Below, in pieces: positions 6,143 through 32,362 of a stretch of 34,588 nt of DNA. The translations under genes were made by a program, and so were the position numbers. Numbering within the stretch: the stretch's first letter is position 1; each line of letters opens with the position of its first letter. The notes under the pieces were generated by a model. That model was not told the origin of the DNA, made no database searches, and worked only from the letters and a program-made list of their open reading frames with translations. The stretch comes from a virus (taxonomy: Duplodnaviria; Caudoviricetes): IMG/VR virus record IMGVR_UViG_3300020043_002535, positions 1 to 34,588 of that record; one strand, written 5' to 3'.

Positions 6143-6371
6143 GACCATGAACGAGTGGTATCCAATCGAGGGCAAGATTGTCGATGGTTGTGTTACTTAT
6201 CATTCAACACAGCGCACGCATGAGAGCTTCAGGATGCACTTGATGAATGCCAATCCAGAAAGCATCGTCTATCAGTACTACTTGAAACGATGCGCAAAGT
6301 GGATAAAGCTTTTAAAATTGCACAATCAAAAGTTAATCCCTATATTTGTGCCCAATGGAACAAAAGATTGA
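6117..6371 (+). CDS. Hypothetical protein
   Basis: 84-aa ORF overlapping both neighbours. Confidence 0.55.
   Translation: MTTEEKIIKTMNEWYPIEGKIVDGCVTYHSTQRTHESFRMHLMNANPESIVYQYYLKRCAKWIKLLKLHNQKLIPIFVPNGTKD
6341..6348 (+). promoter_or_regulatory. Bacteroidota sigma-70 -7 element TATATTTG
   Basis: Matches TAnnTTTG; 6 nt before ATG 6355. Confidence 0.5.
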
Positions 6372-17289: not shown

Positions 17290-17829
17290 ATGGCCTGTGT
17301 ATCATATTGCGACACATCCTTGCTTGACCACAACCTGGTCAATTGCAACGAATATAAGCTTGGCGGAGTTTCCGCTATTATCGTAGGTGCTTGCGGAACA
17401 GAATTGGTTGATCCATCAGATTCAGTTGAGGTTGATGCCTTGCTATCGGCAGGCACTGCCAAGCTAATCAGCGACATCAGATTCGCGCTTCCTGCGGGCT
17501 CACCTATTACTGTCGATTCACCAATCGGATGCGGAACTTCAATCCGCATTAACGAAGATCGTACTGCAACTCTTTACGATGCTAACGTGACAGATGAGAA
17601 CAATACGTTCTGGAACGATGTAAACAATCGCCGTATCTCTTGGATACTTGCGTACATGTGCGACAGCGGAAAGGTGATCTACATCACTGCTCCTGTTGGA
17701 ATCACGACCTCTGCAAACTTCATCTTGCCTGAGCAGAACAACGAGCTTCAGCGTTATGAGGTGACCTTCTCTTGGAGAAACAAAGATATCCCTGCTCAAT
17801 ATGATGCTCCTGCCGGAGTATTCGCATAA
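17290..17829 (+). CDS. Putative major tail (tube) protein
   Basis: 179 aa, acidic and beta-rich, with its own promoter and leader; C...GGV..I N-terminus and YEVTFSW C-terminus. Confidence 0.55.
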   Translation: MACVSYCDTSLLDHNLVNCNEYKLGGVSAIIVGACGTELVDPSDSVEVDALLSAGTAKLISDIRFALPAGSPITVDSPIGCGTSIRINEDRTATLYDANVTDENNTFWNDVNNRRISWILAYMCDSGKVIYITAPVGITTSANFILPEQNNELQRYEVTFSWRNKDIPAQYDAPAGVFA

Positions 17830-18782
17830 TGACTGAGGAATCAAAATCTACTACTCAGAGCATCACTCCTTCCACAGGGGTGGTGCTTCTTGCATTCGGC
17901 AAGCCTCAATATTATTGGGCTGCTTACAACCTTGCTTTCAGCATAAGAAAGCACAATCCTAATATCAACATCACAGTGCTTTTTGATGATCCGATTAAGG
18001 GCTTATCGCACTGCCAAGACTTGATGCAATACATCAATCACATTGGGCACATTGCACTGGAAGATATTTATACCAATAAGAAACTTGATCCAGGCAAGGT
18101 GAAAGTTAATCTATACAAGTACTTGCCATACGACCGCAACCTCTACCTCGATGTAGATGCGATTGCGCTCAAAGACATTCAGCCAATGATTGACGAGCTT
18201 GCTCAATCTGGCAAAGATTACATAAGCCATTGCGTTGGATATCACACCATCGACAAGGGGAGAGACTTCAAGGAGATGCAGTGGGCTTGGGCAGATAAGA
18301 TGTGGGCGCACTTTAACTTGCTTCAATCTTACGTGATGCCTGCCATCAACAGCTCGATGCAGTGGATAGTAAAAGGACCACAGGCAGAGGCGATTTATCG
18401 CACTGCAAAAGACTTGTACTTCAACAATCCGATACCTATCAAAGACCTTCGCATGAAGTGGGGAGGTGGACAGCCAGATGAGTTGTACATGAATGTCGCA
18501 CTTGCGATTCATGGCATTGATCCTGCGCTGAAGCAATACGAGAAGATTGGCGCAAGCGAGGGAGGGATGATTCACTTCTCAATGACTCGAGGCTTAAGCT
18601 TCCAAGAGATTACAGAAAACTACTACTTGCAAAGCTACTATGGCGGCGCAGGATTCACTCCGATTTTTTACATCAACTGGCTTGATAGGATGCTTAATGC
18701 AGACTTCAAAGCAATTGGCAAAAGACATAATTTTTTAATAAGCAGAATCACGCAAAATAAATACGCAGATGGAAAACGCTAA
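17829..18782 (+). CDS. GT-A fold glycosyltransferase (GT8-like)
   Basis: GVVLLAFG, LAFSIRKHNP, LPYDRNLYLDVD (DxD), INSS, QPDE..MNVAL and IHF motifs. Confidence 0.8.
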   Translation: MTEESKSTTQSITPSTGVVLLAFGKPQYYWAAYNLAFSIRKHNPNINITVLFDDPIKGLSHCQDLMQYINHIGHIALEDIYTNKKLDPGKVKVNLYKYLPYDRNLYLDVDAIALKDIQPMIDELAQSGKDYISHCVGYHTIDKGRDFKEMQWAWADKMWAHFNLLQSYVMPAINSSMQWIVKGPQAEAIYRTAKDLYFNNPIPIKDLRMKWGGGQPDELYMNVALAIHGIDPALKQYEKIGASEGGMIHFSMTRGLSFQEITENYYLQSYYGGAGFTPIFYINWLDRMLNADFKAIGKRHNFLISRITQNKYADGKR

Positions 18783-19341
18783 GCCAAAAAAAGGCAGACC
18801 AAAGAAAGAGATTGTGACCACTTCAACATTCAAAGAAGTTGCTCGTCATGATTGGAACTCAGAAGATGAGTGCGGTGCTTTTATGGCAAGCATCATCAAG
18901 ATGAGCAAGTACATGACTGTGCTTGAGATTGGAGTCTTTGAAGGTGAGACAAGTCAGCATCTTATTAAGGCTTTGCCAAAGGGTGGGCAATATGTCGGCA
19001 TTGATATCAATGATTATCGCACAGATGCTACTAAGTTATACATGAAAGAGGGTGGCAAGTCAATCGACTTCATCCTGGGCAATTCACTTGATGAGTTAAA
19101 CAAGTTGCCTAAGAATCATTTTGACCTTATCTTTGTAGACGGCGACCACAGCTTCGAGCATGTTCTTCCAGAGTTTAAGCTTGTTGAGAAGTTGGTGGCA
19201 AGAGGTGGAGTTATTGTTTACCATGACACCATCCATCTTGAAGGACCGAGAAAGCTTGTTGAATACGCTGCTCATTTTAATTATAACAATGTCACGCTTA
19301 ACACAACTGAAGGGCGCGGCATCTCAATACTACACCGATGA
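18769..19341 (+). CDS. Class I SAM-dependent methyltransferase (Methyltransf_24-like)
   Basis: VLEIGVFEGET, GIDI, FDLIFVDGDH and GGVIVYHD motifs. Confidence 0.88.
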   Translation: MENAKPKKGRPKKEIVTTSTFKEVARHDWNSEDECGAFMASIIKMSKYMTVLEIGVFEGETSQHLIKALPKGGQYVGIDINDYRTDATKLYMKEGGKSIDFILGNSLDELNKLPKNHFDLIFVDGDHSFEHVLPEFKLVEKLVARGGVIVYHDTIHLEGPRKLVEYAAHFNYNNVTLNTTEGRGISILHR

Positions 19342-22211: not shown

Positions 22212-22219
22212 TATATTTG
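22212..22219 (+). promoter_or_regulatory. -7 element TATATTTG
   Basis: Intergenic TAnnTTTG, 4 nt before ATG 22224. Confidence 0.55.
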
Positions 22220-22223
22220 TCTC

Positions 22224-22445
22224 ATGAATTACTACATCATGAGCGATGGCACGATTAAGCGTGCAGGTGATGTACTCGCTAAAGAACTTATCAAGCGAGG
22301 TGCAAGAGAATTGAAACTAACACCAATAACAATAGACTATGGCAATCAAACAGGAGGAAGCACTGGAGCTGATCAAGTTCCTAAACCTCGAAGAAGCAGC
22401 CGATCTCGAAGCGGCAAAGGAAAAGTTCCAAGAAAATTGGATTAA
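22224..22445 (+). CDS. Small protein with a basic tail, overlapping the scaffold gene
   Basis: Starts right after the promoter; the first about 38 codons fill otherwise unused sequence. Confidence 0.5.
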   Translation: MNYYIMSDGTIKRAGDVLAKELIKRGARELKLTPITIDYGNQTGGSTGADQVPKPRRSSRSRSGKGKVPRKLD

Positions 22446-29996: not shown

Positions 29997-30197
29997 ATGG
30001 CGGCAAGGAGAGTCAGCAAACCAAGGCAAATGCTTGACATAATAGTTAAGTATTGGAGGCCAACTATTGGCAGTTTGGTGATTCTCAGCTCTGTGTTCGC
30101 GCTTATCTTTAAGCAGATAACAACAGAGACACTTGCAGCTATAGTGGCAGCAATGGTGGCCGCAGGATATATACCAAAAAGCAGTGACAATGGATGA
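29997..30197 (+). CDS. Putative holin
   Basis: 66 aa with a basic N-terminus and two hydrophobic segments; follows the endolysin. Confidence 0.7.
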   Translation: MAARRVSKPRQMLDIIVKYWRPTIGSLVILSSVFALIFKQITTETLAAIVAAMVAAGYIPKSSDNG

Positions 30198-30672
30198 CGG
30201 AATAGACTCAGTACAAGTGATCACAACCCTGGATGCAGGTTGCGTGGTTGGTATTGGCTGCAAAGTCCATACGCATCACCATCGAATTGAGATTAAGCCC
30301 CAAGTTGTTTATCAATCAATGGAGAAATTCACTATCTTTGGGCGCAACTATTGCACTAATCAGTGGGGGCAGACTTTCGAGTTGCCTGCCGATGATTCAA
30401 TGCCAGAGCCACAGCCGATGCAACAAACCTACGCAAGCGATACCATCACACCAACGCAATCTGCATTCTTGATTGCGCCAAAGCCTGAAGCGAAGATCAT
30501 CATCAAGCCGCGCACTGAGTTCACCGAATACAAGCCGACAATGGATGCTCCAGTGATGGGCATGCTGTTGACTTTCACAATTTACATCACAGCACATTGG
30601 GCATGGAGCTCGATGTCTGCATGGTCAAACCTTTGTAGCGAACTCAAGCAATGTCTTCGCTATTCATCCTAG
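30190..30672 (+). CDS. Unknown membrane-anchored protein with a C-x5-C-x2-HxHHH motif and a C-terminal TM helix
   Basis: CVVGIGCKVHTHHH, a Pro-rich linker and PVMGMLLTFTIYITAHWAW. The start could be 30184. Confidence 0.6.
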   Translation: MDDGIDSVQVITTLDAGCVVGIGCKVHTHHHRIEIKPQVVYQSMEKFTIFGRNYCTNQWGQTFELPADDSMPEPQPMQQTYASDTITPTQSAFLIAPKPEAKIIIKPRTEFTEYKPTMDAPVMGMLLTFTIYITAHWAWSSMSAWSNLCSELKQCLRYSS

Positions 30673-31217
30673 AGCATTCGATTGATTTATTTTATGTGGT
30701 CACTGATCAAGACGGGAAAATTGTGTCCAACAATGAGCTGTTCAAGAACTATGTTAGCCACATAAAGCCAAAAAAAATCACAGACATCATAAGCATTGAA
30801 GGTGATAAGGATGATTTCATTGAAGCCATTGAACGAGCTCGCAAACAATCTCCAGAGCCTTCAAGAGTCTATGCTCGCACAAGACAGAAGAACACAAGCG
30901 ACAGATATAATGTTTGGAATTGCTTTGCGATTGCTGACACTCTACACTTTGTCGGCATCCAGATGGTTGATGTGACAAGCATAAGCTCGCATGATTACGA
31001 AAGGCAGCGCATACTCCTTGAGGAGTTTCGCTTTATGCTTAGCCATGAATTAAGGCAGCCATTAACCAACATCACTGGACTTATTCAGATGCTGATGCAA
31101 CACCAAGAAGCAAGCGAGGTAGATAAGAAGGATGTGCTAAGCATGATAAACACTTCAGTCAACAAGCTTGATGATGCAATCAAGATACTCATCAAGAAAG
31201 CAGCACGCGAGTTATGA
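30651..31217 (+). CDS. PAS domain + HisKA (DHp) protein lacking the HATPase domain
   Basis: VVTDQDGKIVSNNELF (PAS start), VGIQMVDVT (PAC end) and SHELRQPLTNITGL (H-box, His132); ends after the second DHp helix. Confidence 0.85.
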   Translation: MSSLFILEHSIDLFYVVTDQDGKIVSNNELFKNYVSHIKPKKITDIISIEGDKDDFIEAIERARKQSPEPSRVYARTRQKNTSDRYNVWNCFAIADTLHFVGIQMVDVTSISSHDYERQRILLEEFRFMLSHELRQPLTNITGLIQMLMQHQEASEVDKKDVLSMINTSVNKLDDAIKILIKKAAREL

Positions 31218-31396
31218 CGGATCAGCAAGCGGACGAGAGACTGGTTAAGGTTGCCGCTTGGTATGTGATTGAGCGAGGTATGCCGGTATGCGTTGCATTG
31301 CAAATATTGCAAGCGGAGCTCAAGGATAAAAGATTATTTTGGGAATCATCTAAACAACTTATAAAACTGATTCAAGATGGCATCTGTACGTACTGA
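31214..31396 (+). CDS. Small hypothetical helical protein
   Basis: 60 aa; ATGA-coupled to the PAS-HisKA gene and overlapping the spanin start. Confidence 0.55.
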   Translation: MTDQQADERLVKVAAWYVIERGMPVCVALQILQAELKDKRLFWESSKQLIKLIQDGICTY

Positions 31397-32101: not shown

Positions 32102-32131
32102 TTGCACATTCAAAATAAAGCTGTACATTTG
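32102..32131 (+). promoter_or_regulatory. Early promoter TTG-N19-TACATTTG
   Basis: Bacteroidota -33/-7 consensus with correct spacing, in an AT-rich intergenic gap. Confidence 0.75.
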
Positions 32132-32137
32132 TCAAAC

Positions 32138-32362
32138 AATCATTCACTCATAAATCATTTACTCTTTTACTCATGCATTCAGAAAAGCAAAAAAATATAG
32201 TACGACATGTAGATCATGCCATTTGGTATTGGGAAGAAAAATTAAAAGGTACTAAATTTTGGTGGGATGAAAATGAGTATAGCGAAGAGTGGATTATTTC
32301 ACAAATTAAATACTTCAAAGAATTCAAATCAATTTAATCATTCACTAATTCAATCATTCACT
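32138..32362 (+). repeat. Four AATCATT(C/T)ACT direct repeats arranged as two pairs
   Basis: Copies at 32138, 32153, 32336 and 32352; each pair lies just upstream of an ATG. Confidence 0.8.
32173..32337 (+). CDS. 54-aa Trp-rich first early protein, absent from the ORF track
   Basis: Manual translation MHSEKQKNIVRHVDHAIWYWEEKLKGTKFWWDENEYSEEWIISQIKYFKEFKSI. Confidence 0.65.
   Translation: MHSEKQKNIVRHVDHAIWYWEEKLKGTKFWWDENEYSEEWIISQIKYFKEFKSI

Follow-up and report, generated by a model that had tools for sequence, protein, structure and literature searches.

The lysis cassette and its parts

The subject of this study is a six-gene lysis cassette in the viral record IMGVR_UViG_3300020043_002535, which was analysed in full and is called the window below (34,588 nucleotides (nt), a complete record with direct terminal repeats). 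Between a holin-like and a spanin-like gene this cassette carries genes for a membrane protein (mem), a protein that joins a PAS domain to a DHp hairpin (PAS-DHp) and a small three-helix protein (small), and an endolysin gene precedes them (Table 1). The annotatable genes of the window (helicase, primase, terminase, portal, methylases and lysozyme) are all on the + strand. A bacterium of the Bacteroidota is the most probable host, since primase relatives, TAnnTTTG boxes and glycosylation sequons on envelope proteins (below) point that way; 29 of the 31 GenBank phage records matched by the primase are Flavobacterium, Cellulophaga or Nonlabens phages, and TAnnTTTG boxes lie 5' of several window genes.

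Table 1. Cassette genes and candidate promoter boxes, in window coordinates (aa, amino acids)
Feature	Position	Strand	Characteristics
Endolysin, phage lysozyme, 152 aa	29533..29991	+	PF00959 E 4e-41; phrog_7 endolysin E 2e-56
Holin-like protein, 66 aa	29997..30197	+	Basic N-terminus, two hydrophobic segments; putative holin role
mem, 160 aa	30190..30672	+	Pro/Thr-rich N-tail, sequons, one helix, amphipathic tail
PAS-DHp protein, 188 aa	30651..31217	+	PAS and DHp hairpin, no ATP-binding domain
Small three-helix protein, 60 aa	31214..31396	+	ATGA-coupled to PAS-DHp gene; no known family
Spanin-like protein, 215 aa	31377..32024	+	u-spanin layout; putative role
TATCTTTG, candidate Bacteroidota sigma-A -7 box	30333..30340	+	Within mem, 318 nt 5' of PAS-DHp start
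TACATTTG	32124..32131	+	Canonical Bacteroidota promoter, with TTG further upstream (spacing 19 nt); downstream cassette boundary

A sequence-only reading of this DNA had proposed that the three middle genes are a signalling-like insert forming a split sensor that acts on lysis. The six-gene order, overlaps and core-like base composition on which it built were confirmed: from holin to spanin the genes overlap by 8, 22, 4 and 20 nt, and the GC contents of mem, PAS-DHp and small are 0.476, 0.414 and 0.432, compared with 0.434 for the genome. It had also seen no terminator, and terminator-like matches are indeed at the chance level (5 found, 3.6 expected). The overlap chain that it described is present in the window and proves to be clade-specific, as 84 of 216 loci have mem and PAS-DHp overlapping and the remaining 132 have a gap of 12–41 nt between them.

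The holin and spanin labels of that reading fit in topology and position and lack a family match, the sole near-match being DUF6549 at E 2e-4, under its cut-off. The holin-like protein, which has no match in Pfam, PHROG or NCBIfam, is so called from its size, topology and position beside the endolysin. Inspection of the spanin-like protein showed a hydrophobic N-terminus followed by Cys25, a C-terminal hydrophobic helix and five sequons; the Cys is kept in 19 of 19 representatives, and the same layout was seen by inspection in the window protein and these 19. Spanins of the u-spanin (T1 gp11) type are defined by an N-terminal lipoprotein signal with its Cys and a C-terminal transmembrane helix (PMC6139136). 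The small protein gave an AlphaFold2 (AF2) model of three helices with a predicted local distance difference test score (pLDDT) of 81.7. It has no match in Pfam, PHROGs, NCBIfam, PDB sequences, Atlas or Foldseek, and VIA-align returned generic three-helix matches only (best Z 6.8); these results speak neither for nor against a role like that of Sda. Its gene overlaps the PAS-DHp gene by 4 nt in 193 of 200 loci, and a predicted complex of two PAS-DHp and two small chains scored 0.16 and 0.14 against a mark of 0.32, values that bear on an interaction in neither direction.

Two fused products were considered and rejected. For holin and mem, 212 of 216 loci share a single overlap frame, whereas 4 loci are in frame behind a double stop, so a holin–mem fusion is not needed; a programmed frameshift joining mem to PAS-DHp is rejected because the gap between them occurs in all three frames across clades. 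A small optional open reading frame (ORF) of about 40–48 aa is found 3' of the lysozyme gene in L002, L011, L035, L053 and L074 (the window is without it), a similar ORF directly follows the lysozyme in the distant locus L229, and the lysozyme–holin gap measures 119–135 nt in 39 loci, the five gaps viewed looking coding.

The PAS-DHp protein

The PAS domain spans approximately residues 10–107 and the DHp hairpin residues 116–187, with His132 in the box SHELRQP. HisKA (PF00512) matched at E 3.8e-8 and 33.7 bits, over the cut-off of 26.9, and PAS_9 at E 0.009, under its cut-off. The AF2 model (pLDDT 74.5) has a PAS fold followed by a hairpin of helices 116–150 and 156–187, and Foldseek aligned it with PAS/LOV chains (3f1o_A at a root-mean-square deviation of 2.6 over 102 columns; 154 PDB matches at E ≤ 0.001), so that the PAS–HisKA identity first assigned from the translation is upheld. 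The best NCBIfam match is to the PAS-DHp part of PhoR; at 36.6 bits, where the cut-off is 334, it is weak and generic. Among viral models in BFVD the PAS model matched S0A2B2 (E 4e-3) and R9ZZL0 (E 3e-2), uncharacterised proteins of Cellulophaga phages phi18:3 and phi19:1.

Only some 10 aa follow the HisKA match in PAS-DHp, which has no membrane anchor and no DNA-binding domain. No HATPase_c match in Pfam and no receiver (PF00072) was present in the 47 window ORFs scanned or in any of the 35 related records covered (from 37 loci; completeness is at least 90% for 33 of the 35), and a tyrosine integrase was likewise found in 0 of these 35. All 33 stand-alone clusters have both His132 and Asn28, and in an alignment of 40 sequences at 19–52% identity just two columns, that of His132 being one, do not vary. 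In HisKA kinases the residue at H+1 (E/D) acts in autokinase and that at H+4 (T/N) in phosphatase activity (PMC3510030); of the 33 clusters, 15 have an acidic residue at H+1, and at H+4 none has Thr, 2 have Asn and 14 have Gln. The window protein has E133 and Q136 at these positions, and Gln at H+4 could serve in the window's own clade. By membership criteria PAS-DHp is neither a histidine kinase nor a two-component system, and the retention of the His by itself would fit a phosphate acceptor, sink or relay that is loaded in trans.

Within the PAS domain a separate patch, SHIxP, is conserved (His37 in 27 of 33 clusters, Pro40 in 28 of 33). LOV domains carry the motif GxNCRFLQ with the flavin-binding Cys, which is also seen in the 4GCZ alignment; a LOV photoreceptor was rejected here, SHIxP and a short deletion standing where the flavin-Cys motif would be. 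Among hits at least 250 aa long, 57 of 78 end within 40 aa of the DHp, and the five long hits examined are multi-PAS proteins with HisKA and without HATPase_c. The layout without a catalytic domain is thus already present in long multi-PAS proteins and no phage-specific truncation is needed, the missing domain probably being inherited. In a quick tree of 66 rows with a midpoint root, the stand-alone SHIxP-type proteins form one 38-row group (Shimodaira–Hasegawa-like approximate likelihood ratio, SH-aLRT, 99). The literature search returned no functional account of catalytic-domain-less PAS-DHp proteins.

The mem protein and glycosylation sequons

The mem protein has three D-[ST]-[AILVMT] sequons, at residues 6, 69 and 84, a moderately hydrophobic helix at about residues 120–138 (Kyte–Doolittle peak 1.23 in the window; range 1.07–2.07) and then an amphipathic tail bearing a Trp; D84, D119 and W145 are invariant at 14–45% identity. 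Comparison of 20 members with Pfam gave no shared family (best E 0.043), and a suspected likeness to DUF4271 gave no match. The sequence D(S/T)(A/I/L/M/T/V) is glycosylated on extracytoplasmic Bacteroidota proteins (PMC10897501). Relative to shuffled sequences it is enriched 6.0-fold in mem (22 representatives) and 7.4-fold in the spanin-like protein, values reached in 0 of 1000 shuffles for either, although the sequences are related and not independent and these counts are therefore no probabilities. It is not enriched in the lysozyme, holin, PAS-DHp or small proteins, and a downstream 94-aa ORF outside the cassette has a 2.5-fold excess. The five distant loci (below) behave similarly, with 19 sequons observed and 4.0 expected in mem, 18 and 3.5 in the spanin-like proteins, and 0 and 2.7 in PAS-DHp.

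By the sequon criterion mem and the spanin-like protein are thus predicted Bacteroidota O-glycosylation substrates. Because the sequons of mem are all N-terminal to the helix (28 of 28 proteins), mem is likely N-out with its tail facing the periplasm, which agrees with the envelope-facing membrane subunit originally suggested; the lack of a signal peptide and the modest hydrophobicity of the helix speak against this orientation. The N-terminus of mem (30190–30280) has a Cys-x(4-5)-Cys-x-x-His motif in several clades, absent from clades B and C, which is a possible periplasmic disulfide or metal site.

Conservation in the main family

A profile scan found a relative of the PAS-DHp protein on 430 viral contigs. 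The main family consists of 218 fetched loci and is redundant, with 22 representatives at <90% PAS-DHp identity; lysozyme, holin and spanin were called by tblastn, and mem and small by position and length. The two full-strength matches in bacterial genomes, L219 and L220, lie on contigs of metagenome-assembled genomes (4.7 and 2.7 kb, labelled Bacteriovoracaceae and Phycisphaerales) that carry the same phage cassette, and thus give no host assignment; they are probably misbinned phage DNA.

The order endolysin, holin-like, mem, PAS-DHp, small, spanin-like is kept in 160 of 160 loci with full flanks; where the flank is long enough, all 202 loci have lysozyme, holin and mem upstream and all 176 have small and spanin downstream. 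Each of the 212 PAS-DHp ORFs carries the His box, and 207 of them are 188 aa long. The ratios of nonsynonymous to synonymous substitution (dN/dS) in three clades are 0.06–0.09 for PAS-DHp, 0.11–0.13 for small and 0.18–0.23 for mem, the fastest-changing of the cassette genes, compared with 0.10 for the lysozyme; the holin-like gene has 0.09–0.12. Gene decay is rejected by these ratios; the exceptions are a shortened PAS-DHp ORF in L203 and 6 of 218 loci cut by contig ends. Judged from these substitution patterns, mem, PAS-DHp and small are real, intact genes under purifying selection. Co-conservation without decay, which had been named as a check on the sequence-only reading, is therefore found (160 of 160 orders, dN/dS 0.06–0.23), and its term "insert" misleads because the module is old and under selection and no recent insert. 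The main family is syntenic throughout, however, and its gene order therefore proves little about linkage.

Linkage in distant loci

A search of 1.8 billion representatives yielded approximately 30 further stand-alone clusters of 170–200 aa, and neighbourhoods were obtained for 3 of these, giving five loci (L225–L229) whose PAS-DHp proteins are relatives at ~26–37% identity; further scans for distant loci found none. Main-family profiles match mem in 5 of 5 of these loci, and holin homologues were found in the four tested (E 1e-6 to 1e-23). In L227 and L228 (query cluster ~33% identical to the window protein) an M15 peptidase replaces the lysozyme (PF13539 E 2e-18 in L227) and the downstream backbone is another one, yet the order holin, mem, PAS-DHp, small ORF, spanin is unchanged. 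L229 keeps holin, mem, PAS-DHp, small ORF and spanin-like gene with its lysozyme lying ~2 kb 5' of the holin. In L226 (37%) the order is holin, mem, a 153-aa spanin-like gene, PAS-DHp, small, and L225 (26%) has holin, mem, PAS-DHp and a 153-aa spanin-like gene. The 153-aa spanin-like proteins did not match the window spanin profile (E > 1). PAS-DHp thus stays with holin and mem through exchanges of endolysin and spanin, and so, as far as these loci sample it, is tied more tightly than the endolysin to the membrane part of the cassette; the linkage to lysis genes in viral databases that the sequence-only reading had proposed to test is in this sense found, PAS-DHp being kept with holin-like, mem and spanin-like genes in all five.

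The two 153-aa proteins (L225:1523-1984 and L226:6475-6936) are 31% identical over 68 aa and have the u-spanin layout, with an N-terminal Cys in a lipobox-like stretch, a C-terminal helix and 4 sequons each. A protein of 253–255 aa with an apparent signal peptide and several Cys is encoded shortly 5' of the holin in L226 (3767-4534) and L229; the L229 copy lies ~1.5 kb upstream of the PAS-DHp gene, and the L226 copy has no Pfam match.

Promoter boxes

The Bacteroidota sigma-A factor recognises TAnnTTTG (PMC7366714), which is placed at -12 to -5 from the transcription start (PMC9723704). In clades B, C and other this box stands 5' of the PAS-DHp start codon in 126 of 126 loci, at a distance of 12 nt in 108, 13 in 15 and 15 in 3, and the chance expectation is 0.034 per 45-nt window. 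A spacing of 12–15 nt predicts a leaderless PAS-DHp mRNA; leaderless mRNAs make up 5.5% of mapped mRNAs in F. psychrophilum (PMC9723704). Elsewhere in the cassette no start of the lysozyme (209 loci), holin (216), mem (216) or spanin gene (146, clade C being left out of this count as its starts are miscalled) has the box, and 6 of 200 small-gene starts do. The window's own clade (clades A and D) has the box at the PAS-DHp start in 0 of 84 loci and inside mem in 84 of 84, and in clade A this internal box falls in the same position bin in 79 of 81 loci. The codons that fix it, ACT and TTT, do not vary, but neither do 3 of the 30 four-fold and 10 of the 34 two-fold sites, and 28% of stretches 435 nt long would contain such a box by chance; the box at 30333 has no TTG at the -33 spacing, and no sigma-70 signal stands out. 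That the box inside mem is a promoter is thus plausible and not certain. The sequence-only reading had reported no promoter, and this part of it was not confirmed: there is a candidate within mem, and in other clades a box lies directly 5' of PAS-DHp. Among the five distant loci an exact box is found near the PAS-DHp start only in L225; L226 has TAAATTGC there, and L227–L229 have TAAATTAG.

Other boxes in the window are at 6341, 6819, 11292, 17206, 22212, 23436, 23508, 24723 and 32124, 5' of many genes including structural ones, so they give no sign of early expression. The ATG at 22224 lies exactly 12 nt downstream of the box at 22212, which is also a leaderless spacing, and in clade C (L168, L200) further boxes at +511 and +708 from the PAS-DHp start precede small and the spanin-like gene in 34 of 34 loci. 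A 54-aa ORF of GC 0.285 (32173-32337) directly follows the promoter at 32124 and occupies a variable slot (present in 3 of 80 loci). Elsewhere in the window, just 5' of the portal gene (17829-19341), a 317-aa ORF without a family match is paired with an O-methyltransferase (PF13578); our impression is that the former reads like a glycosyltransferase, and the pair possibly modifies the virion or host surface.

Interpretation

What might these genes do? We tentatively favour a reading in which PAS-DHp takes phosphate from a host two-component system on His132 and gates the timing of lysis, while recognising that its chances fall somewhat short of even. Host sigma-A would transcribe PAS-DHp apart from the upstream lysis genes, in most clades as a leaderless message. 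The PAS-DHp dimer would not autophosphorylate, so that a host kinase or phospho-receiver would have to load its His, and the PAS domain may tune this loading. The mem protein would cross the inner membrane once, carry a glycosylated tail in the periplasm and be a partner to the holin, with a role comparable to that of an antiholin. Finally, the phosphorylation state of PAS-DHp, perhaps with small as an optional adaptor, might hold or release the holin–mem pair; this step, from phospho-His to holin, is the most conjectural of the series. The broader proposition that lytic Bacteroidota phages, as a widespread class, wire their lysis clock into a host phosphorelay through PAS-DHp and a glycosylated holin partner seems to us rather doubtful.

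Several observations weigh against a lysis-timing role. Linkage is put to the test by only five distant loci, the main family being syntenic across the whole region, and two of the five, L225 and L226, share one downstream backbone. All loci were found through the PAS-DHp gene, which makes relatives without it invisible, and no cultured phage in INPHARED matched the PAS-DHp, spanin-like or putative capsid protein. The holin is identified by its topology, and mem has no signal-peptide-like N-terminus by inspection and a helix that is only moderately hydrophobic. A separate PAS-DHp promoter box would suit an unconnected function just as well, and boxes of this kind are common in the genome. No fused mem–PAS form was found, the only longer PAS form being P0121 and mem having none, though these are weak negatives. 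The three-part split sensor of the sequence-only reading is strengthened by the co-conservation of its genes and weakened by the separate box of PAS-DHp, by the small gene, which was not detected in L225, and by the spanin-like gene that stands between mem and PAS-DHp in L226; the small profile matches in L226 only, with weak or no matches in L227–L229 (E 0.12, 0.82 and none).

PAS-DHp could instead be a decoy in host signalling, draining phosphate from a host kinase or blocking it as a heterodimer and so silencing an envelope-stress or nutrient response, with the holin untouched; small would help, mem would be a separate lysis accessory, and the gene, with its own promoter, would lie near the lysis genes because lysis proteins stress the envelope, or by inheritance. 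Inhibition of a kinase through DHp contacts is known for RetS–GacS (PMC8498467), PAS-DHp has no membrane anchor, its best NCBIfam match, weak and generic as it is, is the PAS-DHp part of PhoR, and among the cassette genes the promoter box is specific to it. There is also no phage receiver, so any phospho-partner must be the host's. A decoy alone, however, leaves unexplained why PAS-DHp remains with holin, mem and spanin when endolysins and spanins are exchanged and why unrelated PAS genes lie by endolysins in cultured Bacteroidota phages (below), and we consider this explanation somewhat unlikely.

It is improbable, in our estimation, that PAS-DHp works without phosphate chemistry as a ligand sensor and scaffold, its PAS domain binding a host metabolite and its DHp dimerising or docking partners. 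The drift of the kinase and phosphatase positions and the PAS domain's own SHIxP patch would suit such a protein, as would the lysis-cassette PAS protein of phi14:2, which is without any DHp, but a protein that is nothing more than a scaffold would give little reason for His132 to be invariant, when just one other column is. Equally low is the likelihood that the three genes are neighbours by descent with unrelated jobs, an ancestor having captured a host PAS-DHp beside its lysis genes: the synteny of the main family, the prior existence of the catalytic-domain-less layout in long multi-PAS proteins and the occurrence of genes of unrelated function inside lysis cassettes (PMC6139136) speak for it, and against it the module outlasts changes of its own endolysin, spanin and backbone, and the promoter box is kept while shifting into mem in one clade.

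If PAS-DHp does set lysis time, lytic phages would read host phosphorelays directly, a type of control that we found in no paper; in the parts of the literature covered, signal-controlled lysis timing in lytic phages is known in few systems (lysis inhibition in T4, ICP1 and N4). No description of the present system was found, in agreement with the sequence-only reading, in a search that left most subscription papers and supplements outside it, and tables of lake viromes may list the genes. Even as a decoy, PAS-DHp would amount to an inhibitor of two-component signalling that is conserved in phages. The six-gene cassette is an experimentally testable unit, the family offers a handle on catalytic-domain-less PAS-DHp proteins, and the O-glycosylation sequon marks likely periplasm-facing lysis proteins of Bacteroidota phages that are without family annotation.

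Comparison with known systems

T4 has the holin T, a periplasmic antiholin RI, thought to sense superinfecting DNA, and a cytoplasmic antiholin RIII (PMC8385771). The cassette resembles it in having a holin(-like) gene, a protein that likely faces the periplasm and small cytoplasmic proteins, with a proposed role in timing; it differs in that no sequences match and T4 is without a kinase-derived component. RI-type antiholins have a cleavable signal peptide, by which RI is exported, and a soluble periplasmic domain that binds the holin. In mem a signal peptide is lacking and the helix is C-proximal, so mem is not of the RI type, though it may have an antiholin-like role.

VqmA carries a PAS domain, and the VqmA of phage VP882 is, like PAS-DHp, a phage homologue of a host sensor that ties (or here would tie) lysis to a host signal. 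Unlike it, PAS-DHp has a DHp output and no DNA-binding domain, and the 35 related records are without a tyrosine integrase; VqmA-phage is a transcription factor that switches the temperate VP882 through Qtip and cI (PMC7790227).

PAS-DHp shares with HisKA kinases (PF00512; FixL/YF1 4GCZ, ThkA-type 3A0R and PhoR) the order PAS, linker helix, DHp and the invariant H-box His, and differs from them in the absence of HATPase_c from protein and genome, in unconserved H+1 and H+4 and in the lack of a receiver. The long multi-PAS proteins P0121, P0149, P0154, P0157, P0163 and P0167, presumed to be cellular, have SHxxRxPL...LD at the C-terminus as PAS-DHp does and are likely its source family; they have several PAS domains and lie apart from the 38-row stand-alone group.

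In cultured phages a parallel in position is g078, the "PAS fold protein" of Cellulophaga phage phi14:2, which adjoins the endolysin g077, and its homologue gp249 in Chryseobacterium phage MA9V-2 is encoded two genes after a GH108 protein; phi14:2 g076 is sequon-rich (4) like mem. The g078 type differs in being a membrane helix–coil–PAS protein without DHp or His box, and has no detectable homology to the PAS-DHp family (hhalign probability 0.9%).

Spo0B and ChpT are kinase-derived, dimeric histidine phosphotransferases that depend on their His and do not autophosphorylate. They keep a degenerate catalytic-like domain, are without PAS and relay to defined receivers of the same genome. PAS-DHp, as predicted from its sequence, is like them in being kinase-derived, His-dependent and incapable of autophosphorylation.

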